Origin: Candidatus Babeliales bacterium
Lineage (GTDB): Bacteria > Babelota > Babeliae > Babelales > JACPOV01
Assembly: GCA_050250855.1 (NCBI GenBank)
Contig: JBFWNW010000004.1
Span: forward strand, 1 to 64,000
Reading direction: 5' to 3'
Length of the DNA: 64,000 nucleotides
The notes below the pieces were generated by a model. That model was not told the origin of the DNA, did not search any database, and saw nothing but the letters and a program-made list of their open reading frames with translations. This document shows, in pieces, positions 23,576 to 52,778 of this stretch. The translations under genes were made by a program, and so were the position numbers. Each line of letters starts with the position of its first letter. Positions within the stretch are counted from its first letter, which is position 1.

Positions 23576-23627
23576 TGCGCTCATGGTGAGTGATTTTTTT
23601 AAAAATCGTATCGAACCATAAAGCGCA
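23576..23627. repeat. palindromic repeat, family C
   Basis: gcgctcatggtgag-[hairpin]-tcgaaccataaagcgc; related to 42552-42697. Confidence 0.65.
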
Positions 23628-35849: not shown

Positions 35850-36742
35850 AAGTAGGATTTATAGGTTTAGGAAAAATGGGTTCTGCACTTGTAACGCGTG
35901 CATTGCAAGATGGTCACGAGGTTGTTGGCTTTGATACTCATAAAGAGAATTCACAAGATTTAAAGCAACATAAAAATTTTACGTTTGCACACGATTTAAA
36001 AAGTTTAGTAGATGACACACGGATACTCTGGCTCATGGTCCCGGCTGGCAAGATAGTGGATAACGTTCTTGATGAACTTAAGCCACATCTTGCTGGTCGC
36101 CCTATTATTGTAGATGGAGGCAATAGTAAATTTACTGACTCAATACGTCGCGCCAAAGAATTAGAAACGTGCGGCGTGCATTTTTTAGATTGCGGCACAT
36201 CGGGCGGTATACGTGGTAAAGAAATTGGTTTTTCATTAATGGTTGGTGGCAATCAAGATGCGTACGATGAAATAAAACCATTATTGCAATCATTAGCAGC
36301 ACCCAATGGTTTTGGGTACATGGGCCCTTCGGGTGCAGGGCATTATGTAAAAATGGTGCATAATGGCATTGAATATGCATTAATGCAAAGTTACGCAGAA
36401 GGATTTCATCTTTTAAAGGATGGACATTTTAAAGAATTAGACTTGGCAAAAATTTCTTCAGTTTGGTATAATGGCTCCGTCATTCGCTCATGGCTTTTAG
36501 AATTATGCCATGAAATTTTTCTGCACCCTGAAACATTACAAAAAATTTCAGGAAGCGTTGCAGAAAGCGGGATGGCTCAATGGACTATTGAAGATGCACA
36601 TAAGCATGACATTCCCGTTCAGCTCATTGAAGATGCGTTAGAGATTCGTTTTTGGTCACAGGAGACAGGAGGCAATTATGCTACAAAAGTTGTTGCAATG
36701 CTGCGCAATAAATTCGGCGGCCATGAAGTTCAAAAAAAATAG
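35846..36742 (+). CDS. gnd: 6-phosphogluconate dehydrogenase (decarboxylating, short type)
   Basis: GLGKMG, DGGNS, GTSGG, KMVHNGIEY, RNKFGGH motifs. Confidence 0.95.
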   Translation: MKVGFIGLGKMGSALVTRALQDGHEVVGFDTHKENSQDLKQHKNFTFAHDLKSLVDDTRILWLMVPAGKIVDNVLDELKPHLAGRPIIVDGGNSKFTDSIRRAKELETCGVHFLDCGTSGGIRGKEIGFSLMVGGNQDAYDEIKPLLQSLAAPNGFGYMGPSGAGHYVKMVHNGIEYALMQSYAEGFHLLKDGHFKELDLAKISSVWYNGSVIRSWLLELCHEIFLHPETLQKISGSVAESGMAQWTIEDAHKHDIPVQLIEDALEIRFWSQETGGNYATKVVAMLRNKFGGHEVQKK

Positions 36743-37031
36743 TTTACTGTTTATAGTTTTATGCAGTAGCCAGTTGGCATTAAGTTATCCACCACCATTT
36801 GAGTTGAGCAATAGAAAACCTCAACAACAAGAGATGTCAGAAAATGCTAGCACGAATCAGTTGCATAAGAAAAAAAATTTTGATTGTAATGATTGTTTAT
36901 CATGCAAGAAAAAAATGTGTGAGCGATTCTGGAAGCTAGACGAGGTAGTGTTTGCTGGACTCGCAATGGTTTTTCTAGGTGGTTGTAACTATTTATATGA
37001 ATCATGCAATGATAATACTCATTTAGAATAA
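36678..37031 (+). CDS. secreted cassette protein 1 (overlaps the gnd 3' end)
   Basis: AGGAGG then ATG 36678; shared leader MKFKK.SLL.IVLCSSQLA; alternative start 36723. Confidence 0.6.
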   Translation: MLQKLLQCCAINSAAMKFKKNSLLFIVLCSSQLALSYPPPFELSNRKPQQQEMSENASTNQLHKKKNFDCNDCLSCKKKMCERFWKLDEVVFAGLAMVFLGGCNYLYESCNDNTHLE

Positions 37032-37039
37032 GGTAAGTC

Positions 37040-37552
37040 ATGCTACAAAAATTGTTGCAATGCTGCGCAATAAATTCGGCGGCCATGAAGTTCAAAAAAA
37101 GTAGTTTACTGCTTATAGTTTTATGCAGTAGCCAGTTGGCAGTAAGTATGGATAAGCGCCAGCTAAAGCAGGGCCCAAAGGGTAATACTTTGAGTTCTTG
37201 CAAAGTTCTTGCAAAAAATGCAAAGAAAAATAAAAAACTTCAAGATTCAAAGAATTCTAAGATACAAAGAAATCGCCAGATGCCACAAGGAAACCGTCAG
37301 ATTTTGCCAAGAAACCTAGAACAAGGGGTTGAAGTTGTAGGAGAAATGGCGTTAATGCGAGATAATAATCATAATTATGCGCAATTTTTTAGATTTCCTG
37401 TGCTTTTTTCATTGATTATTTTTGTCATTTTCATGAATTTTAATAATGACACTAATAATACAAGACAAGAAATCCAGACTACAAAAGATTTCACTGGTCA
37501 TCATTTAGGATCACTTAAATCTACTTTTATGAATAATGAACCTAATCAATAA
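37040..37552 (+). CDS. secreted cassette protein 2
   Basis: Same leader, divergent basic body plus a TM segment. Confidence 0.65.
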   Translation: MLQKLLQCCAINSAAMKFKKSSLLLIVLCSSQLAVSMDKRQLKQGPKGNTLSSCKVLAKNAKKNKKLQDSKNSKIQRNRQMPQGNRQILPRNLEQGVEVVGEMALMRDNNHNYAQFFRFPVLFSLIIFVIFMNFNNDTNNTRQEIQTTKDFTGHHLGSLKSTFMNNEPNQ

Positions 37553-37567
37553 AAACAGGAGACAATT

Positions 37568-37954
37568 ATGTTGCAAAAATTGTTGCAATGCGACGCAATA
37601 AATTTAGCAGACATGAAGTTCAAAAAAAGCTGCCTATTGCTTATGCTTTTATGCTGCAGCCAGTTGGCATTAAGTATGGAAGAAGGTGGTTTCCGTAAAA
37701 GAAAGCCTCAAGAACAACAGATGACACAGAGCGAAGATTCTGAGTTTCAAAAAGAAGTTGCTCGCCAGCGAGAAATAAACGAAGCAATACAAAAGCGGCA
37801 AGAAGCGGAATTTAGAGCAAGGGATAATGATTGTACTAATGGTTGTTTTTGTTTGATTGCTTTAGGGCTTATCTGTTTTGAGTTTTTGCTGCAACCTCTT
37901 CTTATTGCTTCATACTATAGTGACAGAGGAGATAACTGGCGTCCACCATATTAA
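37568..37954 (+). CDS. secreted cassette protein 3
   Basis: Same leader; RKPQEQQM shared with cassette 1; Cys-containing TM. Confidence 0.65.
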   Translation: MLQKLLQCDAINLADMKFKKSCLLLMLLCCSQLALSMEEGGFRKRKPQEQQMTQSEDSEFQKEVARQREINEAIQKRQEAEFRARDNDCTNGCFCLIALGLICFEFLLQPLLIASYYSDRGDNWRPPY

Positions 37955-37985
37955 TCTTAAGATCTGAACCTTAAAATTAAATTTT

Positions 37986-38023
37986 AAAAAGGCTCAATGA
38001 TCAATGGTCATTGGGCCTTTTTT
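37986..38023 (+). terminator. intrinsic terminator after the gnd cassette array
   Basis: aaaaaggctcaatga-tcaatgg-tcattgggcctttttt. Confidence 0.8.
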
Positions 38024-38070
38024 GCGTTATACTGCTAGGAAATTATTAACAAAAAACTTTAGTTATTTAT

Positions 38071-38796
38071 ATGGTATATTTTTTTCTTTTATTTTTTTTA
38101 TTGCATACGAGCACTGATCTATGCCAAGAGTATGAAACTTATTTTCAAGAATTTCCTCAAGCAATAAATTTTCACATTCTTAATTATGTGATATCAAATA
38201 CAACAAAAGCCAAGCATAAAATTGCAAAAATAAGCAACGTTAAGCCATTTGATGAACTCTGTGCATGGGAGTGGTCTGATACAGAGCATCCACGGCCTTT
38301 GCGTATAGAAAGTGCAATTCTTGCTAGTACAGAAATTAATACTAAAAATATTGCAGGAATATTGAAGCGTGCTGATCAATTGAAAGATGAAAAGAAAAAG
38401 CAAGAATGCTATAACGCCTTGAACGTTGCAGATCCTTGGTATATGCACTTCTATAATGCTCTTACGTGTGGCAGCTGTACTCTTTGCAGCTGTAAAACAG
38501 CTGACAAGCTTCATGCTGAACATGTTAAAAGTTATGAAAATTTAGTAAGGAAAAAATATGGTATTGAAGCGCTTGATGAAGAAAAAATTAAAACTATGTA
38601 TAATTTTAATAGTTATGTAGAGAAAAAAAAGAATGCTCAGTGCTTTGTACCACTATGTTTAGGAGGGACTTTTTTGAGTTTTGTTTGTTTTCCTTGCTTA
38701 ATAGTTTCACTCAGTGCTCAACTCTATGAAAACTATTGTTGTAGTTGTTGTGTGCGCTGCTGTCGTGAGTGTGATGAGGTTTCTTTTGCACACTGA
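38071..38796 (+). CDS. secreted F-box-like, Cys-rich 'KYG' family protein
   Basis: FQEFPQAINFHILNYV..VKPFDELC; VRKKYG; poly-Cys C-terminus. Confidence 0.7.
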   Translation: MVYFFLLFFLLHTSTDLCQEYETYFQEFPQAINFHILNYVISNTTKAKHKIAKISNVKPFDELCAWEWSDTEHPRPLRIESAILASTEINTKNIAGILKRADQLKDEKKKQECYNALNVADPWYMHFYNALTCGSCTLCSCKTADKLHAEHVKSYENLVRKKYGIEALDEEKIKTMYNFNSYVEKKKNAQCFVPLCLGGTFLSFVCFPCLIVSLSAQLYENYCCSCCVRCCRECDEVSFAH

Positions 38797-38831
38797 ATTG
38801 CTAGAAAATTATTAATAAATCCAGGTTTTAC

Positions 38832-39488
38832 ATGAGAAGATTTTTTTTTCTAGTTGGTTTGTATAGTTCTTATTTTTTTTGCCAAGAAAAAGATCTCCAT
38901 AATCTTGCAGTCCAACCTTATGATATAAAAAATACTGTTATCGATTTTGTTATGCAGCTGCCACCCAATAGTTCATGGCAAGAAAAAAAAGCAGTGCTCA
39001 AAGATACGCTCAGTTTAATGCAGGTCAATAAAGAATTTAAGCAGTTAATAAATACTAAAAAAGAAAAGCTAGAGCTTCTTAAAAAAGTTGTACTATTATT
39101 ATCCCCTGATGCAAGACCGACTCCTAAAGATATAAAATTTTGCATGGATTATGCTGTACAACAGAATGATAAAATAGCTCTCGATCGTGCGTATCAAGCA
39201 ATTTCAATAGGCCAAAAAGATGCTTTTGATAGTGGCTCTTTGTTTGAATTATGCTGCTATTTTCCATCGACACAAGAAAAAAATCTTATCTTTACTAATC
39301 AGTTTAATGATGCAGTACAAAAAAAGTACGGATTACAAAAAATAGACTATGAGCAGTTGCAAAAATATGAAAGCTATGAAACTTTTATATTTTGGAGATG
39401 GATTTTCAATTGTATAGTATGCCCATGCTATGTAGGATGTAAGAATAAGCCTTGGCAAAAGGGCATGAAAGGAGCAAGAATTGAATAA
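38832..39488 (+). CDS. secreted F-box-like 'KYG' family protein
   Basis: QPYDIKNTVIDFV..LSLMQVNKEFKQLI; VQKKYG; upstream tgctag.aaattattaa duplicated from 38030. Confidence 0.7.
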   Translation: MRRFFFLVGLYSSYFFCQEKDLHNLAVQPYDIKNTVIDFVMQLPPNSSWQEKKAVLKDTLSLMQVNKEFKQLINTKKEKLELLKKVVLLLSPDARPTPKDIKFCMDYAVQQNDKIALDRAYQAISIGQKDAFDSGSLFELCCYFPSTQEKNLIFTNQFNDAVQKKYGLQKIDYEQLQKYESYETFIFWRWIFNCIVCPCYVGCKNKPWQKGMKGARIE

Positions 39489-40038
39489 GTATACTACGTT
39501 CTGGGGCATATTCTTTTTTTGTACGACCGTTTTCTGTATGGATGATTCTCAGTTTATGTTCCCTATAAATCTTCCCATGTCTGAGCATCAAATAGAACTT
39601 GATCCAACATGCTTTCAAAATATAGGGGATATGTGTACTTGTGTATTACCAGGACCTCATGAGAAAACACCCTTTCGAGCATATTGGGATGAAGAATGTT
39701 ATAAAGGATTTACCCAGCGTGTCCAAGAAAAATATGGCATTGATAAACCTATTCCAGAAAAAAGCTCCCATGATTATTTACACTATCGAGCATCAAGAGA
39801 AGAGTATTTGGGCTGTTGTTTGGCTGGGCTGATAAACTCTTTGAGATGTTGCTGCTGCCCTTGCTTGACAGCATATTCATGCTGCTGTGATGTTTGTCCG
39901 TGTTTAGATGTTTGCCCATGGGAAAGCTATGCATGCGAATGGTTTTTAAAACCTGTATGTTGTGATGAAGATGCGTGTATAGGGTATTCTTGTTCAGCGT
40001 GTTGTTTTTGTTGCTGCACCGTGTGTGATAGTCAATGA
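39481..40038 (+). CDS. secreted, extremely Cys-rich 'KYG' family protein
   Basis: VQEKYG; CCCCPC and CCFCCC runs. Confidence 0.7.
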   Translation: MNKYTTFWGIFFFCTTVFCMDDSQFMFPINLPMSEHQIELDPTCFQNIGDMCTCVLPGPHEKTPFRAYWDEECYKGFTQRVQEKYGIDKPIPEKSSHDYLHYRASREEYLGCCLAGLINSLRCCCCPCLTAYSCCCDVCPCLDVCPWESYACEWFLKPVCCDEDACIGYSCSACCFCCCTVCDSQ

Positions 40039-40106
40039 TTTACTAAAATCATACTCTTGAAATAGTTAGTTGAAATTTGATAATTGTATATAAAAAAGGG
40101 AATTAT

Positions 40107-40322
40107 ATGAATTATAAAGTAGTTGTACTGAATATTATTTTTTGTGCGTCCTGCTTATATGCGCAAGAAGATCAATCTATTCCATTACCAAAAAAAACAG
40201 ACGTAAATATTAAAAAAAATGGCTCTAAAGATCTTGAAAAATTGGGTGAGGCAGCAGCTTATGGCCTTCAAGAAGTATTAGCTATAGTTCAAAAGTACTA
40301 CCTTATGCTTACAACAGAATAA
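40107..40322 (+). CDS. small hypothetical secreted protein
   Basis: Signal peptide ending LYA. Confidence 0.5.
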   Translation: MNYKVVVLNIIFCASCLYAQEDQSIPLPKKTDVNIKKNGSKDLEKLGEAAAYGLQEVLAIVQKYYLMLTTE

Positions 40323-40345
40323 AGAATTCATTCCAAGGAGTTTGC

Positions 40346-40981
40346 ATGAAGATAATTGATATCAGTTGGCCTATCTCTGAAGCTATGACTGAATATAAGG
40401 ATGGCAAGTCGGTAAAACTTACGCCAACCAAAACTATGGAGCATAATGGCGTACGGGAATGGCTTTTGCAGATGAATAACCATACAGGAACGCATATAGA
40501 TGGCCCTGCGCATTTTCTTGCAACCGGGCAAACGATTGATAAGTTTGAATTGCAAAGTGTAATTGGTCCATGCCGCGTACTAGATCTAACCTCGGTGACC
40601 GAAAAAATAATGCCAGAAGATTTAGAGCCGTTTGGTATAGAAAAAAATGAAATTATTCTTTTAAAAACAACTAACAGTTTTCGCCAGCCTACCGATAATT
40701 TTACCTATAATTTTGCCTATATAAGTGACGCCGCTGCTCATTATCTTGCGCACGCACGCATAAAAGCGTTAGGCTTTGATTATCTTGGTATTGAGCGTAA
40801 CCAGCCAAACCATGATACGCACAAAGCATTTATGCAGTTTAATATTCCTATAGTGGAAGGATTGCGTTTAGGTGCAGTAAGTGCTGGTTCATATTTTTTT
40901 GTTTGTTTGCCACTGTATGCAGTTGGTCTTGATTCTGCACCGGCCCGTGCAGTGTTGCTTGAAGGGGTGAAAGTAACATGA
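40346..40981 (+). CDS. cyclase-family metal hydrolase (kynurenine formamidase-like)
   Basis: HTGTHIDGPAH, GFDYLGI, IVEGL, SAPARAVL motifs. Confidence 0.9.
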   Translation: MKIIDISWPISEAMTEYKDGKSVKLTPTKTMEHNGVREWLLQMNNHTGTHIDGPAHFLATGQTIDKFELQSVIGPCRVLDLTSVTEKIMPEDLEPFGIEKNEIILLKTTNSFRQPTDNFTYNFAYISDAAAHYLAHARIKALGFDYLGIERNQPNHDTHKAFMQFNIPIVEGLRLGAVSAGSYFFVCLPLYAVGLDSAPARAVLLEGVKVT

Positions 40982-41646
40982 AGAAGTTATGTATTATTTT
41001 TATGCTAGCAGGAACTTTGGGTGCAATGGAGCCGAAGAAATCTGACAAAGGTAAAAAAGAAACAACGCCATTGCTTAAAAAAGAGTCTAATTCATCTCAA
41101 TCGAGTGACTATCATAATTCAGGATTTGAGGTTTCTTCTTCTAGTGATGCTAGTTTGCTTAAGCCAACAACGCAAATGATGGAAGTTGAAGAGTGTGAAA
41201 AGAAGTATGAGCAAAGAAAAGAAATAATGCAGAAAGCTATAGCTGGCATAAAAGCATGTAGAAATAACATTGACAATGTGAAGCTTACTACTGATTATAG
41301 CTTTATTATTTGGGTTGCAAAAGATAAAGCTGAGGAATTTAAAAAATATTACTATCAGCTTGTTGCGGTGCAAAACTTACAACATAAAGATGAAAAGTGG
41401 GAAACATATCCTGTTTCTGGTAATTGTTGTTATAGCGGCACTCTTATAGAAAGAAAGACAGCTTCTATACGTCCAGTATTAGATGAAAACTGTTTGAGAA
41501 ACGAACTTGGTGATTTAGGTTGTTTACTCTATCGTGTTTTAACGGTATCTGAGTATGATGAATCATTGATGTTTTATTCTGATTTTCCTCGTAACGTTTC
41601 ACGAAATACCTTAACGGAGTATGTTAAAGAATCAAAACGTCATTAA
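40978..41646 (+). CDS. hypothetical secreted protein
   Basis: Signal ending LGA-ME. Confidence 0.7.
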   Translation: MKKLCIIFMLAGTLGAMEPKKSDKGKKETTPLLKKESNSSQSSDYHNSGFEVSSSSDASLLKPTTQMMEVEECEKKYEQRKEIMQKAIAGIKACRNNIDNVKLTTDYSFIIWVAKDKAEEFKKYYYQLVAVQNLQHKDEKWETYPVSGNCCYSGTLIERKTASIRPVLDENCLRNELGDLGCLLYRVLTVSEYDESLMFYSDFPRNVSRNTLTEYVKESKRH

Positions 41647-41666
41647 TAAAAAAGAGGGGGACGGGG

Positions 41667-42506
41667 ATGATAAAAAATATAATACTTATTATAGGGATAA
41701 TTATTAGCTCATCAGTAGAGGGCATGGAACCTGAAGAGCTATTTCAAAAGCGCGTTGATGAAGAACAAAAAAAGAAAACAAAAAATTCGCCAAGACCAGA
41801 ACTTAATAAAAGGCTTGCTGTTTCTGAAGAAACGATACAAGCACATGATAAAAAAAGAGGGTTAACAGAAGCGTCTTTACTTTTTGTGCATCAGAAGAGA
41901 AATAGCCAGAACATTCTACCCGAAGGTCTTTCAAAAAGAAACTCTTATTATCAAGAGTATAGTCAGCTGGTGGAACTTATTAACGAAATTCCAGATGATA
42001 CTAAACGAGAAAATTTTGTTAAAACTATAATAAATAATAAGCAAGAAGAAGAGTTTGTTGCAAAAATGATCAATATTATTAACGAAAATGTGGTTGACTG
42101 TGAGATTAAATATGTAAGTCATACTGTTGATTATGAATCTGGCTGCACCATTACCGTACGAGCTATCCATAGCAAACAGCTTAAAAAAATCTTTTTAACC
42201 TTAAATGAACTTTATAAGCAGGAACAAGAAAAAGTATCTCTAGAAAATAAGCCAAAAAAAGGATCGTTCCTTAATATTTTTAGTTGGTCATTTTCAGAAA
42301 AAAAATCAGAAAAAGTGCCTGAGTCTGTTTTCAAAGAAAAAGAATTTAAAAAATTTGATACATGCCAAGACAATATTCTTTTTGAGCTTGCAACAAAGGG
42401 CTGCTATTTTGATGGCAGAACGCATTATACTCTTGATGAAATATTTAAGTTTAGCAAAGAAATTTCACCATACTCAGAAAGCTCACAGAATTTGTTTGGT
42501 GAATAA
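41667..42506 (+). CDS. hypothetical secreted protein
   Basis: Signal ending VEG-ME. Confidence 0.7.
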   Translation: MIKNIILIIGIIISSSVEGMEPEELFQKRVDEEQKKKTKNSPRPELNKRLAVSEETIQAHDKKRGLTEASLLFVHQKRNSQNILPEGLSKRNSYYQEYSQLVELINEIPDDTKRENFVKTIINNKQEEEFVAKMINIINENVVDCEIKYVSHTVDYESGCTITVRAIHSKQLKKIFLTLNELYKQEQEKVSLENKPKKGSFLNIFSWSFSEKKSEKVPESVFKEKEFKKFDTCQDNILFELATKGCYFDGRTHYTLDEIFKFSKEISPYSESSQNLFGE

Positions 42507-42551
42507 TTTTGAAACTGAACGAAAATTCTATTTAAGAGTATGTATTTATTT

Positions 42552-42697
42552 CGTTCGTTCGTGGTGAGGGTTTTTCGTAGAAAAACGTCTCGAACCATAC
42601 GAACTCAAAATTAAAATATAATTTTTTATTTTTTGGTAAGTTGTCGTTATGGTTCGAGACGCAAACTAAAATAAGTTTGCTCCTCACCACGAACGGG
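42552..42697. repeat. inverted pair of family C palindromes
   Basis: cgttcgtggtgagg..cgtctcgaaccatacgaac / tatggttcgagacg..cctcaccacgaacg between convergent genes. Confidence 0.8.
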
Positions 42698-42704
42698 ATT
42701 GAAA

Positions 42705-43268
42705 TTAAGAATCACCCAAAGCTTTTTTAGTCAAAACGCGCATAATTCCTTGAGCAAACAGTTCTGCAGCTTTGGGACCTACGGCCGTTACTACAAGGCC
42801 ATCAGTGCAAATATCATGGCCCTTTGCATACTCTACGCCATTTCCTTTAAAAATAGTTTCTAATGCCAAATCATCATCCCAGCCCGTTGCCTTTTTGCCA
42901 GCAAGAGCATTTGCTTTTGCAAGAATGCGTGGTGCAATGCAAATAGCGCCATAAGGAATAGCATGTTTTTTTGCTTCAGATGCAATTTTGTAACTTATTG
43001 AATTATCAAGACAATCCATAGCACCAGGGCCGCCAATAAAAAATACGCCATCATAATCTGTTGGCTTAAGTTTATCAAGCGTACTATCAACGAGAGTGGT
43101 GGATTGATCAGATGCTACAGCACCACCGGGTTTATCACTTGCCGTAATAACCTTAATACCGTAACTTTCTAAAATTTTTTTGGGAACACCATATTCAATG
43201 GGTTGGTAGCCGTTTGATGCAATAATAAATACAACTTTTTTACCTTTGAGGTATTCTTTATGTTCCAT
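42705..43268 (-). CDS. DJ-1/PfpI family protein
   Basis: GYQPIE, FFIGGPGA, GAICIAP, GKKAT motifs. Confidence 0.92.
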   Translation of the reverse strand: MEHKEYLKGKKVVFIIASNGYQPIEYGVPKKILESYGIKVITASDKPGGAVASDQSTTLVDSTLDKLKPTDYDGVFFIGGPGAMDCLDNSISYKIASEAKKHAIPYGAICIAPRILAKANALAGKKATGWDDDLALETIFKGNGVEYAKGHDICTDGLVVTAVGPKAAELFAQGIMRVLTKKALGDS

Positions 43269-43289
43269 AGATTTTCCTTTTTTTTATAG

Positions 43290-43336
43290 TTTCATTTTAG
43301 CAGAATAAAAATTAATGTCCTGCTTGTCTACCTGGG
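43290..43336. repeat. 47-bp perfect direct repeat, copy 1
   Basis: tttcattttagcagaataaaaattaatgtcctgcttgtctacctggg, identical to 44421-44467. Confidence 0.95.
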
Positions 43337-43431
43337 ACAACCGGTCTCATTAGAAGTATTTTTTAATTGACATTATTACCTGGTATAGTACCATATTGTA
43401 ATATATGTTTTATAGTTTAAGGTGATTCTAC

Positions 43432-44400
43432 ATGAAAATAAAGCTATCTGTTGCGCTATTCTTTGCGTCTATTTGTAATCCTGTTTTTTCTTGGTGGCCT
43501 TTTGGCTCCTCAGGTAGTAGTTATGAGATTATTATCAATGGCAAAAGATATAGTAGTGAAAATAGTTGTTTTTCTAGCCAATTGACTGAAAAAGAGACTA
43601 GGACTGAGTCCGCATCAAATATTAAGAATCTTGATGCTAAGACTTCATCGGGAAAGATTGATGTTGTTGGCCAACCGTATATATCTGATGCAATAATTGA
43701 TATGGTTTTTAAAGCATCTCAAAAAGAAGAGATTGAACGCATGAAGAAAGCAGTTATTATTCAAAATAAAAACAATACGCTTTTTGTTAAAGATAATATA
43801 CCGCCCGATTGTTTTAGTTGTTCTATTGATTTTAATGTAAAAGTACCACAGCAAATTAATATTGATGCTTCTGCAGCTTCAGGTAATATTTCGGTTAAGG
43901 CTGTAACGGGTTTTCTTAAGTTTTTAACAGCAAGTGGAGATGTTACTACTAAGCATATAGGTGGTGGTATACAAGGAAAAACAAAGAGTGGCAATATTTA
44001 TGCCGAAAATATAAAAGGTGATGCAAATCTTAAAAGTTCTAGTGGTAAAATCTTTGCTGGTTTTGTTCAGGGAAATCTTTTTGCTACGAATTCTTCAGGA
44101 TCTATAAAAGCCCAAGATATTAAAAAGAACATTAGAACAGAAACAACTTCAGGTGATATTAAGGCTACAAACATAGGTGGCAATGCTGAATGCGCTAGCT
44201 CTAGTGGGAGTATTTTTATGGATGCTGTTAGAGGATCGCTTTGGGCGCGAGCTATTTCTGGAAGTATTAATGCTTCTAAGGTAAGAGATAGCTATGATTT
44301 CAAAACAACTTCAGGAAATATTTTTATTCAAAAGCATCCAGAGTTTAAAGGAGCTTTTCAACTAGCAAAAACAGTTTCAGGAAGAGTAAAATATAAATAA
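43432..44400 (+). CDS. secreted DUF4097/adhesin-like beta-strand repeat protein
   Basis: Repeated T.SG.I motifs; signal peptide; upstream TTGACA at 43367. Confidence 0.85.
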   Translation: MKIKLSVALFFASICNPVFSWWPFGSSGSSYEIIINGKRYSSENSCFSSQLTEKETRTESASNIKNLDAKTSSGKIDVVGQPYISDAIIDMVFKASQKEEIERMKKAVIIQNKNNTLFVKDNIPPDCFSCSIDFNVKVPQQINIDASAASGNISVKAVTGFLKFLTASGDVTTKHIGGGIQGKTKSGNIYAENIKGDANLKSSSGKIFAGFVQGNLFATNSSGSIKAQDIKKNIRTETTSGDIKATNIGGNAECASSSGSIFMDAVRGSLWARAISGSINASKVRDSYDFKTTSGNIFIQKHPEFKGAFQLAKTVSGRVKYK

Positions 44401-44414
44401 AAATATTTAATTAA

Positions 44415-45374
44415 TCATTTTTTCATTTTAGCAGAATAAAAATTAATGTCCTGCTTGTCTACCTGGGTTTGTATATGTAAAGCTGGAAAGGTAATATCTT
44501 GGTATGCCAATCTTTTTTCTAAAGGCGTAATAGTGATAGCAGAGCCAATCTGTTTTTTATAGATTCCTAGTCTGTGTAATGTTATATTTTTTTGTTCCAC
44601 AATTTTTTTTACCTGGCCATATGCGCGGTACAGCTTTTTGCTGCCATTGCCTTGCCAAGAAATCAGATAAAGATTTTTTACCTGCAGATGCATACACAAA
44701 GCGCATACCGCCTCAAAAGTAAGAATACTAGGCTGTGCAATAATAACATGCTCCAAGCAGATAGAGCCGAATTTTTTATGGAGTGTTGGTGCCAGTGTAT
44801 ATTCAATCCATGAAGGTGTTGATGCATAATGGCCAAGATAGCCAGGATCAATAAATACTAATCCATCTTCCTTTTTCATAACAGTAACCGTGCCGCGATT
44901 GCACGGTAGTTCAAGATAAGCTGAGCTTTCTTGCAGCCATGCTAAATATCCTATAAACAAATACAGCAATAATAAAAAGCTCCAGATTGCACGAACCATG
45001 CTTTTAGTATAATGCAGAATAAAAAATGCGCTTGCGACAAGCAATAGAAGTACTAACAAAGAAGGTTGCTTTAAACTAATGAGCCATCCTTGTGTATGAA
45101 ATGCTAAAAGAGAGCGCCAGCTATGCACAAGGTATTCAAGAAGATATACAAGCCAACTATTTGGCAGATGCAAAAGTTCTGCAAAAAAAAGCAATGAAGA
45201 GAGTAACAAAAATGCCATCAATAGCGGTGTGAAAATAAGATTAGCAAGAGGGCTCATCACCGATAACGGCAAGCCCCAACATATAAGAATAGGCAAAGAC
45301 CCCAGAGTAATAAAAAGCTGTACGTATAAAAAACGGATAAGGTAATGGTATAAAGCAGCGCTTTTTATGTTCAT
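44415..45374 (-). CDS. ComEC/Rec2-like membrane protein (partial competence domain)
   Basis: LPIL..LSVMSPLANLIFTPL TM pattern followed by a degenerate beta-lactamase-like region. Confidence 0.6.
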   Translation of the reverse strand: MNIKSAALYHYLIRFLYVQLFITLGSLPILICWGLPLSVMSPLANLIFTPLLMAFLLLSSLLFFAELLHLPNSWLVYLLEYLVHSWRSLLAFHTQGWLISLKQPSLLVLLLLVASAFFILHYTKSMVRAIWSFLLLLYLFIGYLAWLQESSAYLELPCNRGTVTVMKKEDGLVFIDPGYLGHYASTPSWIEYTLAPTLHKKFGSICLEHVIIAQPSILTFEAVCALCMHLQVKNLYLISWQGNGSKKLYRAYGQVKKIVEQKNITLHRLGIYKKQIGSAITITPLEKRLAYQDITFPALHIQTQVDKQDINFYSAKMKK

Positions 45375-45621: not shown

Positions 45622-45852
45622 ATGAAGAAATTATTAGTAATGATTATGATGATAAGTTCTGTAGCTGGTCTTAAAGCAGTATGTTTTGATGAATCAACGT
45701 GTCCTGAAGTGACAATTCAGCAACAAGAAGAAAATAAAGAAACTGCTGATACTAAAAAGCTTGACACACAAGAAGCTAAAAAGCTATCAAAGGAAAAAGA
45801 AGATGCTTTGATTGCTGAAGCGTTGATCATTGAGCAAACAAAAGAGCAGTAA
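45622..45852 (+). CDS. small hypothetical secreted protein
   Basis: AAGGA RBS, MKKLL signal peptide. Confidence 0.6.
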   Translation: MKKLLVMIMMISSVAGLKAVCFDESTCPEVTIQQQEENKETADTKKLDTQEAKKLSKEKEDALIAEALIIEQTKEQ

Positions 45853-45874
45853 AACAATTTTTAAGGAGTTTGTG

Positions 45875-46510
45875 ATGAAGAAATTAATGATGGTTATTTT
45901 TTTAAGTGCGCCATTCACTGTAGGCGCAAATGATCTTGGATCTCTGTTAGGAAAATTGACGGGAAAAATCGACCCTCAAATTACGGTAGCAGAAGGTGTT
46001 GTTTCGCTATTAGGTTCTAAGTTTCCTCAATTAAAGCCATCATTAGAAGGTTTTATGAATAATATCAAGGAAGCTGAAAAGCTAATACAAAAACAACTTA
46101 ACCAAGCAGAATTGGAAAAGTTATTTAATACGGTTAGTAACGTTCGTACTCAGTTAAAAACGTTAGCAAGTACTGTTTTGCCTCAAATAAAATTAGGTGT
46201 AAGCAGAAAGCTGACTGCAGCTCAATCAGAAGCTAAAGGACTTTTCAATCAGTTAGAGGGTATTGTTACTGATTTCTTAGTTGGAAAAGCTGAAGGTCTT
46301 TATAAAGAAGCTCTCAAAAAAGCAGGGGAACAGCAAGACCAGTTTATTGCTAAGGCTCAGTTGATTCTTGGTGCTTTGTATACGCAGCAAGATTTAGATG
46401 CAGACCTTTTACGAGGTAAAGCATTAGATTTGAGTAATAAGCTTAATAACTTTATTAAGAGTAAGCCTCAGCTGAAAGCTAAGCTCGATAAATTAATAAA
46501 AAGCTCATAA
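45875..46510 (+). CDS. hypothetical secreted helical protein
   Basis: AAGGAG RBS, MKKLMM signal ending VGA. Confidence 0.7.
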   Translation: MKKLMMVIFLSAPFTVGANDLGSLLGKLTGKIDPQITVAEGVVSLLGSKFPQLKPSLEGFMNNIKEAEKLIQKQLNQAELEKLFNTVSNVRTQLKTLASTVLPQIKLGVSRKLTAAQSEAKGLFNQLEGIVTDFLVGKAEGLYKEALKKAGEQQDQFIAKAQLILGALYTQQDLDADLLRGKALDLSNKLNNFIKSKPQLKAKLDKLIKSS

Positions 46511-46584
46511 GGAAACTCCTTTTAAGGGAGACAAGAAAAGGGGAGTTGCAATACTTCCCTTTCTTGGTTTGTAAAGGTGATGTT

Positions 46585-47283: not shown

Positions 47284-47364
47284 ATCCCAATTTTTTATTG
47301 TTCTTTTTTTCTAAAAATTTTATGGTTATAAAGGTGAATTTTTCAAGAAAGAAAGATAAGCAAA

Positions 47365-47592
47365 ATGCATAAAAAAAGGCATCTAGTTATTTTGTGCTGT
47401 ATGTTCATGCAGATAGTATGCATGCAAGATGGTGGACAAAAAGTACCAAAGAATAGTGCACCAGCACAAAATCCTCCTGTCTCTAAACTTTCCCTCTATT
47501 ATGCAAATAAAGTAGGTAATGATGGGACGGTGCTACACTTTGTTGGTTCTAAAAAAGCGTGTTTTCAATTCTTAAAACAAAAAAAATCCTGA
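47365..47592 (+). CDS. small hypothetical secreted protein
   Basis: Signal ending IVC-MQD. Confidence 0.5.
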   Translation: MHKKRHLVILCCMFMQIVCMQDGGQKVPKNSAPAQNPPVSKLSLYYANKVGNDGTVLHFVGSKKACFQFLKQKKS

Positions 47593-47606
47593 AAAGAAGA
47601 TAAAGT

Positions 47607-49466
47607 ATGAATAATGCATTAGTAGACTTTTTAAATCATAAAGCTTATGCAATGCGTGTTTCTTCTTTACAGATGACAACGCATGCAGGATCTGGGCACC
47701 CAACATCAGCGCTATCAGCAGCTGATATTATGGCGGTGCTCTTTTTTTATACCATGCAGTATGATCCAAAAAATCATGATAATCCAAATAATGATCGTTT
47801 TATCCTTTCAAAAGGTCATGCATCGCCAATTTTATATGCAGCGTATAAAGAGTTAGGAATTCTTTCAGAGCAAGATCTTATGACCTATCGCACATTTGGT
47901 TCTGTGCTAGAAGGCCATCCAACGCCACGTTTTTCTTACAGTCAGGCGGCAACTGGTTCTTTAGGGCAAGGACTTTCTATTGCTGCAGGAATAGCATTAT
48001 CAGCTTTTATGGATAAACGTCATTTTTATACGTATGCATTATTAGGCGATAGTGAAGTAGCCGAAGGCTCCGTGTGGGAAGCAGTGGAAGTTGCAGCATA
48101 TTACAAACTTCATAACCTTGTTGCTATTCTTGATGAAAATCGTTTAGGACAAAGTACAGAAACTATAGATGGTTACGACAGTAATAAGTATGCACAAAAG
48201 TTTGAAGCATTTGGTTGGAACCCATTAATTGTTAATGGTCATAGTGTTATTGAATTAATGAATGCTTTTGACCAAGCGCAAAAAAGTAAAGACAAACCTT
48301 CCATTATTATCGCAAAAACTATTAAAGGATATGGCGTTCCAGAAGCTGAAAATAAAATGGGTTTTCATGGCAAAGCATTTTTGCACGAAGAGCTTCCTGG
48401 CATTTTAGCTGAAATGAAAAAAAAGTTTGCCTATGCTGCCAGCTATGCTGATTCTTATGCATGGCAGCCAAAATTGCCAAAAGAAGAAACAAAGAAACCA
48501 TTTAAAAAGATTTCACTATCGCTACCAACGTATAAAAAGGGTGATGAAATTCCTACGCGCAAAGCATATGGGCAAGCACTTGCTGCACTTGGTTTTGCAA
48601 GTCAAGAAGTAGTAGCTCTTGATGCTGAAGTAAAAAATTCTACGTATGCAGAAATTTTTGAAAAAGATCACCCAAAAAGATTTGTGCAATGTTTTATTGC
48701 AGAACAAAATATGATTGGCATGGCAGTTGGCATGACAACACAAGATAAAATTCCTTTTGCATCAACCTTTGGTGCTTTTATGACGCGCGCATTTGACCAA
48801 ATTCGCATGGCAGCAATTGGGCATGCACCATTGCGTTTATGCGGTTCACATGCAGGGGTCTCTATTGGCCAAGATGGGCCTTCACAAATGGCGCTTGAAG
48901 ATATTGCGATGATGCGCACCATCCCCGATTCTGTTATTTTTTATCCAGCTGATGCGGTTAGCACCTATAAATTGGTTGCTGTAATGGCCAATAATAATGA
49001 AACTATTTCCTATCTGCGCACAACGCGTGGTGCAACGCCAGTTTTGTATGACAACAATGAAGAGTTTAAAATAGGCGGTTGTAAAGTGCTGCGTCAGAGT
49101 GATCATGATACTGCTTTAGTTATTGGCGCCGGCATTACACTCCACAATGCACTTGAGGCTTATGAATGGTTAAAAAAAGAAAAGATTACGATTGCGGTTA
49201 TTGATCTTTATTCGGTAAAACCACTTGATCATGAAACAATTCTGAGCATGGCAAAAAAAGCTGGCAACTGCATCATTACCGTTGAAGATCATTATTTAGA
49301 AGGTGGTTTAGGCCAAGCCGTTACCTGTGCTTTACGCAATGAAAACATAGAAATAACCAATCTAGCTGTTCGCAAATTACCACGCTCAGGAGCGCCAGAA
49401 GAGCTTATGGCGTGGGAAGAAATTGACGCACAAGCAATTGTCCATGCTGTTAAAAAAATTTATTAA
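47607..49466 (+). CDS. tkt: transketolase (short, animal-TKT-like type)
   Basis: SGHPTS, LSKGHA, TGSLGQG, GDSE..EGSVWEA, IAEQNM, GQDGPSQMALED motifs. Confidence 0.96.
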   Translation: MNNALVDFLNHKAYAMRVSSLQMTTHAGSGHPTSALSAADIMAVLFFYTMQYDPKNHDNPNNDRFILSKGHASPILYAAYKELGILSEQDLMTYRTFGSVLEGHPTPRFSYSQAATGSLGQGLSIAAGIALSAFMDKRHFYTYALLGDSEVAEGSVWEAVEVAAYYKLHNLVAILDENRLGQSTETIDGYDSNKYAQKFEAFGWNPLIVNGHSVIELMNAFDQAQKSKDKPSIIIAKTIKGYGVPEAENKMGFHGKAFLHEELPGILAEMKKKFAYAASYADSYAWQPKLPKEETKKPFKKISLSLPTYKKGDEIPTRKAYGQALAALGFASQEVVALDAEVKNSTYAEIFEKDHPKRFVQCFIAEQNMIGMAVGMTTQDKIPFASTFGAFMTRAFDQIRMAAIGHAPLRLCGSHAGVSIGQDGPSQMALEDIAMMRTIPDSVIFYPADAVSTYKLVAVMANNNETISYLRTTRGATPVLYDNNEEFKIGGCKVLRQSDHDTALVIGAGITLHNALEAYEWLKKEKITIAVIDLYSVKPLDHETILSMAKKAGNCIITVEDHYLEGGLGQAVTCALRNENIEITNLAVRKLPRSGAPEELMAWEEIDAQAIVHAVKKIY

Positions 49467-49741
49467 TCAGAATATCCGGATTCATCATGGGAAGGATAAT
49501 CTGAATCAGGAAAACTATGAGAAGGTTTTTTGCAGCATGTATCGCATAATTCACAGCAAATTATAAGGCACAAAAATAGATTTGATGCTCCTTGTTTTTT
49601 TTGGGTAATGAGATTCGAATTTTCATTTGGACCAAGACCGTATTTAGCAGCTACTCTTGAAGTAAATTCTTTTGTGTCAGATTCCATGGCAAAAGAGTTA
49701 GTTGATGCAATTGCCAAGAGAATAATTAAATAATTTTTCAT
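49463..49741 (-). CDS. small secreted 'KYG' Cys-rich protein
   Basis: SFA-MES; RVAAKYG; CCELCDTCC. Confidence 0.6.
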   Translation of the reverse strand: MKNYLIILLAIASTNSFAMESDTKEFTSRVAAKYGLGPNENSNLITQKKQGASNLFLCLIICCELCDTCCKKPSHSFPDSDYPSHDESGYSD

Positions 49742-49831
49742 AGTGCAAATTAATCCTTACGAAGATGACATATTTTTTATTTTGAAAAGATGATTATAAC
49801 ATATAGATTGGTATTGTATATAGTATTTTTT

Positions 49832-50671
49832 TTACGATAATAGTTCTTCAAGCTGCTTTTTATTATTTTGAGATATAAATGTTGCGCGGCTCAGTAAATC
49901 CTTAGCAGTTTCGCCGTAGTTATTTTTTAATGTTTTTTGTGCACCATGGTTTAATAATGCTTGTATTATATCAACCACATTTTTTTGTGTATGCACCGTT
50001 GCTTTTTGTACAACATACATTAACGGCGTGTAACCCTTATGATTTTGTATATTGCAATCTGCACCCCATGCAAGAAGCTGGTCGGTAGCTTCTTTATGCA
50101 CACCCCATACGGCCCAATGTAAAGCTGTTTGTTTATTCTTATCTTGTTGATTAATAAGACATTTTTTTGTACCAAAAAGAAGTTTCATGATTTCAAGCTT
50201 ACCAGCTCCAGAGGCCCATTGAAAAGGTGTTTTTTCTTCATTATCTTTCAATTCGGGATTTGCACCGTTATCAAGAAGAAGCTGTGCCATACCAGTATGT
50301 CCTTTGTAACTTGCCCATGCAAGAGGAGTTTGTCCTTTGTTATTACGTGCATTTATTTGTACTTTTGGTTGTTTCAACAAGAGGGTAACAATATTAAAAT
50401 GATTATTGCCTGCGCTCCAATGCAAAGCGGTTTCGCCATTTTTATCAGTGCTATTTAAACAAGAAGGATTGGCTTCAAGTTTTTGGTTGACGGTGTCAAA
50501 ATCTCCATGGCCAGCGGCCCATTGAATAGAAATGTCATTAGATTTTTTATTAGGTGTTTGAAATGTTACTTTTGGTTTTTGGGGTTTTTTCTTTTTTGTT
50601 TCATCCATAGGCTGCGCTGTTTGAGCTGCAGTAAGGATGAAAAGAAAACCATAGCATAGTAAATTTTTCAT
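49832..50671 (-). CDS. secreted ankyrin-repeat protein
   Basis: Multiple G.T(A/P)LHWA..G ankyrin repeats; signal peptide. Confidence 0.93.
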   Translation of the reverse strand: MKNLLCYGFLFILTAAQTAQPMDETKKKKPQKPKVTFQTPNKKSNDISIQWAAGHGDFDTVNQKLEANPSCLNSTDKNGETALHWSAGNNHFNIVTLLLKQPKVQINARNNKGQTPLAWASYKGHTGMAQLLLDNGANPELKDNEEKTPFQWASGAGKLEIMKLLFGTKKCLINQQDKNKQTALHWAVWGVHKEATDQLLAWGADCNIQNHKGYTPLMYVVQKATVHTQKNVVDIIQALLNHGAQKTLKNNYGETAKDLLSRATFISQNNKKQLEELLS

Positions 50672-50703
50672 AAATGCTTCCTTTTACGTATAGTGTTTGT
50701 ATA

Positions 50704-50926
50704 AGAGCTTATCCATAAATTCAAAAAAATGATATTTTGTGTTCGTACCCTTCGACCCATTCGACAAGCTCAGGGCAGGCTCCCCTCGAATTGCCTTTAG
50801 TCCCGAGCAGCTGCAAAGCTGACGAGGGGTCAGGGCGAACGGAATAAAAAAAGCATTTATATTAAAACCGTTCGTGCTGAGTTTATCGAAGCATTCGAAC
50901 GTCAATTAATAATTTATGGATAAGCT
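50704..50926. mobile_element. MITE-like family A element with terminal inverted repeats and nested inserts
   Basis: agcttatccataaatt ... aatttatggataagct enclose the family A hairpins. Confidence 0.7.
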
Positions 50927-50973
50927 ATAAGTATAGCATAACATTTTATGTATGCATGATTCAAAAAAGAAAA

Positions 50974-51010
50974 AATAATGGATAGGCAGTTATTCTGCCT
51001 ATCCATTATT
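50974..51010. terminator. perfect palindromic terminator
   Basis: aataatggataggcag-ttatt-ctgcctatccattatt. Confidence 0.8.
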
Positions 51011-51051
51011 TGAATTATTTGTTTAGAGATAAAAGATTTAAAAGTTCTGTT
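51009..51051. repeat. 43-bp direct repeat of the ankyrin gene 3' end
   Basis: Matches 51894-51936 with 2 mismatches. Confidence 0.9.
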
Positions 51052-51872
51052 TATTCAAATACACCTTTTACGCAGCAGGTACATGGAAAAAATAACCAAC
51101 CATAAAACGTTTTGCCTTCTTCAAAATTTCTTTTTCCAGTAGAATCATATTTGTCATGACAACAGTCATGTGCTATTAGAGAGCCCACACAGCAAAGAGG
51201 GCAAAAGATCAGTTGTGTGGCGGTACGTGCACTACACATAAGAAGCCATATTCCGGTGCCTAAATAGTATTTTCTTGATTTTTTATATTCTTCATAATTT
51301 CCATGTTCCAATGTACTAGAAGAAGCGATGCCATATTTTTGTTTAATGCGTTTGGTGTAGTTTTCTTGGCAGATTTCATTCCATTTTTCTTCTTCTTCCG
51401 GCCATCGCATACACCATGGCACGGTGCAAATACAGCAATCTTGGCAAGTATCCAAACAGTCGGATTGATAATCCATTTTTTTGTAAGCTTTTTGCATTGT
51501 TATTTGATCATTATTTTTTTGAGCAATTTCAATAATTTTTTTTGCATTTTTTGGTGTTAATCTTAAATGTTGAGCAAGAAGCTTTTCAAGTTTGGGACTT
51601 CTTGAGTTTGAGAGTGGCTCAAGGTTGCTACACAATGTATGAAAATGCTTATTAGTTTTTGCCATTGCTTTAATTGTTTTTAAACTATCTTCACTGTCAG
51701 TGGCAATATATTCTAAGATGTGCAGTTGCACAGGAAGCGGCACCTCATTCAGATAATCATACGCAACTATTTCTTGTTTTGAATCTTTTAACAAAGGCGT
51801 AGTTTCTGATGTCATTGCATTAAAAGAATATGCTGCGGTAATTATTGTTAGGTACGTTATACATTTATTCAT
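51051..51872 (-). CDS. secreted F-box-like, Cys-rich 'KYG' family protein
   Basis: LNEVPLPVQLHILEYI..IKAMAKTNKHFHTLC; IKQKYG; Cys-rich tail. Confidence 0.75.
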   Translation of the reverse strand: MNKCITYLTIITAAYSFNAMTSETTPLLKDSKQEIVAYDYLNEVPLPVQLHILEYIATDSEDSLKTIKAMAKTNKHFHTLCSNLEPLSNSRSPKLEKLLAQHLRLTPKNAKKIIEIAQKNNDQITMQKAYKKMDYQSDCLDTCQDCCICTVPWCMRWPEEEEKWNEICQENYTKRIKQKYGIASSSTLEHGNYEEYKKSRKYYLGTGIWLLMCSARTATQLIFCPLCCVGSLIAHDCCHDKYDSTGKRNFEEGKTFYGWLFFPCTCCVKGVFE

Positions 51873-51899
51873 ATTTATCCCTGATAGTGTGATTTTGAA

Positions 51900-52778
51900 T
51901 TATTTGTTTAGAGATAAAAGATCTAAAAGTTCGGTTCTATTGTTTTCTGATATAAATTTTGTAAAATTTACTACATGATCAGCAGCAGATTCATTAAATT
52001 TATTTTTTAATGATGGATTTGCACCATGTTTTAACAATAACTGTATAATAGCAACTACATCTTTTTGAGTGAGTACACTTGCTTTTTGTGTGACACGCAT
52101 TAAAGGCGTGGTCTCATTATTATCAGTTGTATTACAATCAGCATTCCAAGCAAGAAGCTGTTCTACGGCTTTTGTATGAAGACCCCAGACTGCCCAATGC
52201 AGAGCGGTTTGACCAAAAGTATCTTTTTGATTAATAAGACATTTTTTTGTGCCAAAAAGAAGTTTCATGATTTCAAGCTTGCCAGCTCCAGAGGCCCACT
52301 GAAAAGGAGTTTTTCCTTCAACGCCTCCTAGTTCAGGATTTGCGCCAGCATCAAGAAGAAGCTGTACAATATCAGTATGTCCTTTGTAACTTGCCCATGC
52401 AAGAGGAGTTTGTCCTTTGTTATTACGTGCATTTATTTGTACTTTTGGTTGTTGTAGCAAGAGCTCAACAACTTTTTTTTGGTTATTGCTAGCAGCCCAA
52501 TGTAAAGCAGTTTCGCCACGTTTATCTGTGTTGTTTATTATAGATGGACTATCGATAAGCCATTCTTGGACCGTATCATAGTGACCATGACCAGCTGCCC
52601 ATTGAATAGTTATATCATCAAACTTTTCTACCATGGGTTTTTGTTCATAAAAATTCTGGCTCGTTTTAGCTTGAGGCATATATTTTTGTTGCGCTCGAGA
52701 AAGTTTTCTTTCCATAGCTTGCATTGATCCAGCAACAACAAGAAGGAAAAGAAGGGGATATTTTGTATAAGTATTCAT
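51900..52778 (-). CDS. secreted ankyrin-repeat protein
   Basis: Ankyrin repeats; paralog of 49832..50671. Confidence 0.93.
   Translation of the reverse strand: MNTYTKYPLLFLLVVAGSMQAMERKLSRAQQKYMPQAKTSQNFYEQKPMVEKFDDITIQWAAGHGHYDTVQEWLIDSPSIINNTDKRGETALHWAASNNQKKVVELLLQQPKVQINARNNKGQTPLAWASYKGHTDIVQLLLDAGANPELGGVEGKTPFQWASGAGKLEIMKLLFGTKKCLINQKDTFGQTALHWAVWGLHTKAVEQLLAWNADCNTTDNNETTPLMRVTQKASVLTQKDVVAIIQLLLKHGANPSLKNKFNESAADHVVNFTKFISENNRTELLDLLSLNK

Follow-up and report, generated by a model that had tools for sequence, protein, structure and literature searches.

Two single-gene insertions flanked by duplicated gene ends, and a tandem gene array at gnd, in a chromosomal stretch of a Babeliales bacterium

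The DNA analyzed here, referred to as the window, comprises positions 1 to 64,000 of contig JBFWNW010000004.1 (assembly GCA_050250855.1, Candidatus Babeliales bacterium). This 64-kb window has a GC content of ~36% and is a core chromosomal stretch of a Babeliales (Dependentiae/TM6) bacterium. At three loci in the window, the 3' end of a gene recurs as a direct repeat a short distance downstream, with genes for putatively secreted accessory proteins between the copies. The repeated ends belong to gnd (encoding 6-phosphogluconate dehydrogenase), to a gene for a ComEC-like membrane protein followed by pfpI, and to the ankyrin-repeat gene ank1, which has a paralog, ank2, nearby. An earlier note on this DNA had taken all three as independent insertions that duplicate a gene tail. 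That description holds for the ComEC-like and ank1 loci, where 43 to 47 nucleotides (nt) of the upstream gene end flank one added gene, but gnd turns out to carry a tandem array, and the three loci are not one phenomenon. On present evidence, the ComEC-like and ankyrin insertions are a pair of isolated events explicable by known mechanisms. Dependentiae (TM6) are little-studied obligate protist parasites, and these loci bear on the question of how such bacteria acquire and shuffle their many secreted, eukaryote-like proteins.

The repeats are present where the earlier note had placed them, with three copies at gnd, a perfect 47-nt pair (R2) at the ComEC-like gene, and a 43-nt pair with two mismatches (R3) at ank1, and the genes whose ends are repeated are intact open reading frames (ORFs). 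The window contains 21 local exact repeats of at least 14 nt spaced 30 to 4,000 nt apart. Seven of these are at least 24 nt long, and all seven fall at the three repeat loci or within the ank1/ank2 paralogy, while the longest exact repeat in 100 third-order Markov simulations had a mean of 15.6 nt and a maximum of 19. In a test of 60 ORFs, each tail (the final 60 nt plus 10) was compared by alignment with the 3 kb downstream of that ORF; gnd, the ComEC-like gene, and ank1 scored 62.5, 47, and 38, respectively, against a control maximum of 15.5. The remaining 57 ORFs scored 13 or less, and none of the 60 ORFs in the window is followed by an older, degenerate tail copy. As the earlier note had held, the repeats are unrelated among themselves: the comparison of R2 with R3 gives P values of 0.054 by shuffling and 0.041 against the window background, and the gnd unit resembles neither. 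A shared attachment motif in the ComEC-like and ankyrin repeats was considered and rejected, since their similarity is not significant. The source is probably a metagenome-assembled genome (MAG), and the repeats might for that reason be assembly artifacts. Such an origin is extremely unlikely, given that the flanking ORFs are all intact, that the junctions are biologically sensible (a ribosome-binding site before the inserted gene X at the ankyrin locus, a terminator after the orphan tail there, and the pfpI ribosome-binding site after the orphan ComEC-like tail), and that the 43-nt and 108-nt repeats are imperfect, unlike an assembler overlap error. For each of the three window proteins queried (ComEC-like, DUF4097-like, and X), the database lists two contigs, which could stem from a single assembly submitted twice. 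The features of the three loci are collected in Table 1.

Table 1. Positions of genes, repeats, and signals at the three repeat loci (L001, the syntenic locus of the Babeliales MAG SW_22; aa, amino acid)
Feature	Position in window	Strand	Basis or remark
gnd (6-phosphogluconate dehydrogenase)	35834..36742	+	Pfam PF03446/PF00393; 72% aa identity to L001 gnd
S1, gene for small protein with putative signal peptide and C-terminal hydrophobic segment	36678..37031	+	ORF; ortholog at L001 14036-14377
R1 copy 1 (gnd tail and S leader)	36678..36785	+	Repeat comparison
S2, second array member	37040..37552	+	First 108 nt (37040-37147) 96% identical to R1 copy 1
S3, third array member	37568..37954	+	R1 copy 3 (37568-37675) 81% identical
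pfpI (DJ-1/PfpI family), original downstream neighbor of ComEC-like gene	42705..43268	-	Pfam PF01965; 86% aa identity to L001 pfpI
Orphan ComEC-like tail copy (R2)	43290..43336	-	21 nt upstream of pfpI ATG
Insert, 1,084 nt	43337..44420	+	95-nt upstream region, DUF4097-like gene (43432-44400), 20 nt more
Promoter-like site in insert upstream region	43367-43394	+	Promoter scan
ComEC-like membrane protein gene (319 aa)	44415..45374	-	Pfam and relatives; ends K then TGA, as in L001
R2 copy in ComEC-like gene	44421..44467	-	Repeat comparison; codons just before final K and stop
ank2, ankyrin-repeat paralog of ank1	49832..50671	-	Pfam; 70.5% nt identity overall
Terminator-like hairpin, 17 pairs then T run	50973..51011	-	Directly past orphan ank1 tail
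Orphan ank1 tail (R3)	51009..51051	-	41/43 identical; starts at X stop codon, in frame with X
X, 273-aa Cys-rich protein with N-terminal hydrophobic leader	51051..51872	-	KYG-motif family
R3 copy in ank1	51894..51936	-	Last 34 coding nt, stop codon, 6 nt beyond
ank1, ankyrin-repeat protein with N-terminal hydrophobic leader	51900..52778	-	Pfam
81-nt perfect tract of ank1 and ank2	52373..52453 (50293-50373 in ank2)	-	Exact-repeat survey and alignment

At the ComEC-like locus, a DUF4097-like gene lies between the ComEC-like gene and pfpI. It is convergent with the ComEC-like gene, and its end lies 14 nt past the end of the latter. The ComEC-like protein has 54 database relatives, the closest non-self one being 59% identical, and a search from a seven-sequence alignment, with one genome per species, yielded three loci: L001 from a Babeliales MAG, isolate SW_22 (59% identity in the ComEC-like protein); L002 from a TM6 MAG (31% identity); and L003, a short contig. 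In L001, the ComEC-like gene and pfpI are separated by a 136-nt spacer that holds no DUF4097 gene and is filled by two palindromic repeat units. In P0014 (530 aa) and P0019 (522 aa), ComEC-like and PfpI sequences form one ORF, and L002 is without pfpI. The empty site that the earlier note had anticipated, with the ComEC-like gene abutting pfpI, is thus found in three of the four relatives with a visible downstream neighbor (L001, P0014, and P0019), which indicates that the 1,084-nt segment is an insertion; judged from the sequence comparison, the locus is a true single-gene insertion of the DUF4097-like gene. The inserted 322-aa protein has no Pfam match at an E value of ≤1, and its best homolog is 34% identical over 51% of the length. 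Most of its database homologs (E values down to 3e-32; 26 to 41% identity) carry PF13349 (DUF4097). The ComEC-like protein itself is only ~320 to 340 aa long throughout the Babeliales relatives, and its match to the Pfam Competence domain is weak and covers the end of that domain.

The end of the ComEC-like gene distinguishes the two tail copies. Read in frame, the orphan copy ends in KMKL and then a stop, its continuation being L-TAA, while the six bases past the repeat at the real gene end (K, TGA) are those of L001, and P0002 also ends in KMKK. In the tail, 40 of 47 nt counted by hand are identical to L001 (89.7% over 39 nt by blastn), compared with 67% for the whole gene. From base composition, a plain 47-nt duplication is estimated to need a chance match of about 1 in 1,000 at those six bases. 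This coincidence is avoided if the incoming DNA brought a genuine ComEC-like tail, and it is also avoided if the duplication was originally 53 to 55 nt long and the orphan then lost 8 nt by slippage. A 7-nt motif with a period of 8 is repeated at the ComEC-like end. The promoter-like motif that had been reported beside the orphan tail does exist, but it lies inside the ComEC-like repeat itself, and the regional number of such matches is at shuffle level (66 versus 60.4 ± 7.8 expected). The sites inside the repeat are weak, scoring 9 of 12, and face pfpI, and in view of the regional count a pfpI promoter in the repeat is only hypothetical.

The ankyrin locus has an architecture like that of the ComEC-like locus and is a single-gene insertion of X. 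The start of X lies 21 nt past the R3 repeat in ank1, behind an AGGGA motif. Both mismatches of the orphan copy fall within its first 14 nt; the other 29 nt are perfect. The orphan reads in frame as a peptide with a stop, runs straight into the 17-pair hairpin and T run, and supplies bases at the foot of the terminator stem. The observation that an orphan tail stays beside the original downstream element is borne out both here, with the terminator, and at the ComEC-like gene, with the pfpI start region. The ank1 tail is native coding sequence, because the C terminus of ank2 is homologous to it. In addition, the 81-nt perfect tract within paralogs of 70.5% identity (0.76^81, ~2e-10) indicates recent gene conversion nearby. 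The gap between the genes for the GH3 hydrolase and transketolase, in which the ank1-X-ank2 block lies, measures 3,476 nt in the window, as opposed to 393 nt in L001. At window 51009-51064, X closes with 9 nt that are exactly reverse complementary to the end of the orphan ank1 tail together with 2 further nt, which places the orphan in the loop of a 9-bp stem; this fold is no stabler than shuffles (z scores of -0.44 and -0.05).

X has a single database homolog, P0176, which is 50% identical and lies on a 1,133-nt contig; compared with it, the C terminus of X is full length. X belongs to a Cys-rich family with an invariant KYG motif and 21 to 26% identity, which is common to the array at 38071-40038 (plus strand) and to L001 13315-13944 (minus strand). 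Pfam gave nothing for X and its paralogs at an E value of ≤1. An F-box-like stretch near the N terminus of this family was seen by eye, and the first match for X in a protein atlas was an F-box cluster (score, 0.80), which is a lead only. The GC content, GC3, and codon usage of the inserted genes are native. Foreign composition was accordingly rejected as a sign of their origin; distant horizontal transfer is not indicated, and the native composition points to a related donor or to long residence.

The gnd locus is of another kind. In L001, a single 113-aa ORF (14036-14377) starts 65 nt inside gnd (14313-15206), and the same 65-nt out-of-frame overlap between gnd and the small gene is present in both genomes (window 36678-36742; L001 14313-14377), so the overlap is ancestral. 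The ATG of S1 lies inside gnd behind an AGGAGG motif, and a second ATG follows at 36723. The AGGAGG, which is Shine-Dalgarno-like, is encoded by conserved Gnd residues. The R1 unit is 108 nt long, its first 65 nt being the gnd end, and the spacings between units are 362 and 528 nt. S1, S2, S3, and the L001 protein align, with an MLQKLL start, a hydrophobic leader, an RKPQ-like motif, and a C-terminal hydrophobic segment in common, and their DNA units share the first ~130 nt. Because the single L001 gene has the 65-nt gnd overlap, what looked like a gnd tail is the small gene's own 5' end. With adjacent, head-to-tail homologous units here and a single copy in L001, the locus is a tandem array holding three copies of a gene for a small, putatively secreted protein, and not an insertion. 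S3 retains ~16 nt of gnd-end homology 5' of its ATG, while the homology of S2 begins at the ATG, which indicates at least two duplication events with different left borders. S1 and S2 are 94 to 97% identical over the first 108 nt and then 22 to 58% identical, with unalignable bodies; gene conversion or the addition of a diverged allele would account for such near-identical leaders. The locus holds a caution in that plain tandem duplication of a gene that starts inside its upstream neighbor mimics gene-tail insertion.

Duplication of this sort might also be thought to underlie the other two loci, the orphan tails then being all that a deletion left of decayed tandem copies of the ComEC-like gene and ank1. 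The ank genes are duplicated here (ank1 and ank2), tandem duplication has been active at gnd, and the orphan ank tail is still an in-frame peptide with a stop. Each deletion would, however, have to end exactly at the X stop codon, or 21 nt from the pfpI start, without leaving any other remnant; the ComEC-like gene is single copy in all relatives seen, and the unrelated gene between the copies is left unexplained. This origin is considered very unlikely.

We hold with moderate confidence that two ordinary processes acted in the window, multiplication of an array at gnd and recombinase-independent, tail-duplicating insertion at the ComEC-like and ankyrin loci. The setting would be a compact genome in which neighboring genes share border sequence. 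At gnd, a fast-evolving small gene natively starting 65 nt inside gnd would have been multiplied to a three-member array, and since the gene starts inside gnd, the gnd tail would serve each copy as ribosome-binding site, start, and leader. At the other two loci, one complete gene would have entered right at the end of the upstream gene, without a recombinase, duplicating 43 to 47 nt of that end, or possibly 53 to 55 nt originally at the ComEC-like gene. The favored route is homology-anchored addition, in which linear or circularized donor DNA from a related genome would have brought in both the accessory gene and an authentic copy of the neighbor's 3' end. This DNA may have paired within the gene end while its other side was joined illegitimately just upstream of the resident tail, which would have been displaced but have kept the neighboring downstream signal, the start region of pfpI in one case and the ank1 terminator in the other. 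A circle would instead integrate through the tail. The same product could arise by a replication template switch returning ~45 nt behind its departure point; homology-facilitated illegitimate recombination and microhomology-mediated template switching are known routes. We infer the donor, the chemistry by which the ends were joined, and the part that selection played. Selection probably shapes which insertion products survive, retaining only those with both neighbors functional, and the survivors would for that reason look like genes slotted in at gene ends. The higher DNA conservation of the ComEC-like tail relative to the whole gene, its weak promoter-like sites, and the contribution of the orphan ank tail to the terminator stem would fit such selection. 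Homology-anchored addition is preferred because of the ComEC-like end, where the K-TGA agrees with relatives and the orphan has L-TAA.

Several points weigh against this reading. No donor was found, the DUF4097-like protein having a best homolog of only 34% identity over 51% of its length and X one homolog at 50%, and the insert ends match nothing else compared: with the insert ends, the leader of pfpI, and the terminator as queries, blastn-short against the window and L001 to L003 gave self matches and chance matches of 10 to 17 nt only. The empty ComEC-pfpI site comes from distant relatives (closest, 59% aa identity in the ComEC-like protein) and not from the same species, and the whole ank1-X-ank2 block is missing from L001, which gives no view of an empty X site. 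The X-side junction exactly at the X stop codon is a coincidence under any insertion model. The recombinase scan covers 64 kb of the genome, and an integrase could act in trans. Finally, a staggered 53- to 55-nt target duplication with 8-nt slippage of the orphan also accounts for the ComEC-like end.

The last point belongs to a rather unlikely alternative, in which replication or break repair inserted the gene in one step with a long target duplication, made by a filled-in staggered break or by fork template switching without a homologous donor tail. The agreement of the ComEC-like end with relatives would then be due to chance or to the trimming of a longer duplication by slippage. A single event suffices per locus, the duplications are alike in length (43 and 47 nt), and neither is more than 6 nt away from a stop codon. 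The period-8 motif makes an 8-nt slippage in the noncoding orphan plausible, and the palindromic units in the L001 empty site could stall forks. Against it stands the chance match that a plain 47-nt duplication demands at the six bases shared with L001. In addition, neither insert has a donor copy in the window, and the protein database offers none above 50% identity.

If the pattern of the two insertions were frequent genome-wide, it would indicate a homology-anchored way of adding genes. As they stand, the two clean single-gene insertions indicate that genes can be added at operon junctions with neighbors undisturbed and no mobility gene nearby. The suggestion of a general, possibly undescribed route goes beyond what the sequences show. 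Only two events are seen, no degenerate examples occur among the 60 ORFs, and no gene-tail repeats are present in 41 kb of two relatives' loci (L001 and L002). Other gene-content differences from SW_22, such as the block at 40978-42506, are likewise without repeats. As for novelty, passages of PMC5704250 describe direct repeats at the 3' end of an intact gene as a signature of site-specific integration and already name elements that keep them without an integrase (CIMEs). A nonexhaustive literature search found no description in Dependentiae of integrase-less single-gene inserts with 40- to 50-nt gene-tail repeats. In a bolder version, single effector-like genes would move in this Babeliales lineage as recombinase-free units of gene tail plus gene, with recombination between the 43- to 108-nt repeats freeing a circle that could reenter any genome with the same conserved gene end by RecA-type pairing. 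We regard this version as improbable. If true, gene ends would be portable, sequence-independent attachment sites, offering a general route of secreted-protein shuffling to an obligate intracellular bacterium without visible mobile-element machinery.

L001 is syntenic with window 30.8 to 56.1 kb in inverted orientation. The genes in common are pgi, zwf, gnd, one small gene, a cyclase gene, pfpI, the ComEC-like gene, and genes for a 241-aa protein, transketolase, the GH3 hydrolase, NfeD, and an SPFH protein. Extra or different in the window are S2 and S3, a larger array of genes for Cys-rich proteins (38071-40038), two ORFs at 40978-42506, the DUF4097-like gene, genes at 45622-46510, and the whole ank1-X-ank2 block. 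Among these differences, tail repeats bound only the S array, the DUF4097-like gene, and X; a local exact-repeat survey of the window found none at the 40978-42506 block or where the ank block begins and ends, and the majority of accessory-gene differences from SW_22 lack them. In the SW_22 MAG, the GH3 hydrolase gene (L001 2592-4263) and pgi (16602-17916) are each split into two ORFs, reflecting either frameshifts or assembly errors. Both genomes encode an eukaryote-like protein with a ubiquitin C-terminal hydrolase (UCH) domain (window 56292-57569, minus strand; L001 20-883; 36% identity). Short palindromic intergenic repeat families (REP/MITE-like), built on motifs such as GTTCG and CGAACG, occur in the window at 3607-3725, 18780-18952, 50750-50930, 56153-56193, and 57918-57958, and also at 42553-42700 and 23578-23620. 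In L001 they lie at 9825-9911 and 10984-11081; the families are common to both genomes, and the intergenic sites differ.

The accessory proteins had been described as secreted. All have an N-terminal hydrophobic stretch, and it is these stretches that the label, best read as putative, is taken from. In 8 of 14 accessory proteins inspected by eye, a small residue, M, and then E or D (for example, A-M-E or S-M-D) come after the hydrophobic leader, a count that includes X, whose motif reads M-T and not M-E/D. The ORFs concerned are 37085, 37613, 39481, 40978, 41667, and, on the minus strand, 49832, 51872, and 52778. The motif also occurs in several SW_22 proteins (L001 ORFs 14036-14377, 8820-9737, and 12719-13306), and it may be a lineage-specific leader or cleavage motif.

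The earlier note had stressed that no mobility gene or tRNA attachment site accompanies the repeats, and this was confirmed. A Pfam scan of 57 ORFs (20 proteins at an E value of ≤0.01 and 37 at ≤1e-5, shorter ORFs being left out) detected no integrase, transposase, or recombinase family in the window, which also contains no tRNAs and no Rfam matches. No terminal inverted repeats lying within both insert ends were found; the sole near-terminal inverted pair (51053-51064 and 51889-51900) is 12 nt long and 83% identical, with 7 nt of one arm inside the repeat.

Among known systems, integrative elements come to mind first. According to passages of PMC5704250, such elements recombine between direct repeats of 8 to 60 bp and can integrate into the 3' ends of protein-coding genes, where one repeat includes the gene end and the gene is undisrupted, and CIMEs keep attL and attR without an integrase. 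The inserts might then be miniature att-flanked, CIME-like elements, integrated as circles whose attachment site copies the 3' end of the target gene, with the 43- to 47-nt repeats as attL/attR cores and the recombinase located elsewhere or lost. The architecture of 47-nt and 43-nt direct repeats around an insert, with the ComEC-like gene and ank1 left intact, fits integration into protein-gene 3' ends as set out in those passages of PMC5704250, and the element-side ComEC-like tail (K, TGA) rebuilds a genuine gene end. Unlike CIMEs, however, the inserts are single genes of 842 and 1,084 nt (0.84 to 1.08 kb) with 21 to 115 nt of noncoding DNA, which leaves no room for decayed integration or transfer genes, and they show no trace of such a module and no Pfam match. 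The 57 ORFs scanned in the 64 kb include no recombinase, two different specificities would be needed for the two unrelated repeat sequences, and no such repeats are present in the relatives' loci. A CIME-like origin is therefore judged unlikely.

The orphan (displaced) C-terminal modules of rhs and cdiA are similar in that, as passages of PMC3967940 describe, a fragment of the upstream gene end is left downstream after DNA has been added, and the shared segment can support homologous recombination. Here, in contrast, neither upstream gene encodes a polymorphic toxin, one product being a ComEC-like membrane protein and the other an ankyrin protein, and the orphans are the bare last 43 to 47 nt, without an alternative tip or an immunity gene. 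The repeats are also far shorter than the 522 bp given in those passages (PMC3967940). As in transposon insertions and integron cassettes, short direct repeats surround the insert, and cassettes are likewise single ORFs. Unlike a transposon, the inserts have a far longer duplication (43 to 47 nt), no terminal inverted repeats at their ends, and no transposase among the 57 ORFs. Transposon target-site duplications are usually 2 to 14 bp. Unlike integron cassettes, the loci have no IntI among the 57 ORFs of the window and no attC-like hairpin in the repeats; such hairpins were rejected because the single-stranded repeats fold no better than shuffles (z scores of -1.34 to +0.38). The minimal mobile elements of Neisseria are accessory genes that lie between conserved core genes without a mobility gene and are exchanged via flank homology; to our knowledge, they have not been described as flanked by a duplicated gene tail, and natural transformation is unproven for the present organism. 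Tandem duplication with gene conversion differs in its usual form from the gnd locus, where the unit starts inside the preceding essential gene, dragging a piece of gnd along, and the array bodies have diverged past DNA alignment. It nevertheless resembles the gnd locus in its head-to-tail homologous units with a single copy in a relative, and in the sharply bounded, near-identical tract within diverged paralogs, which is also seen in ank1 and ank2.

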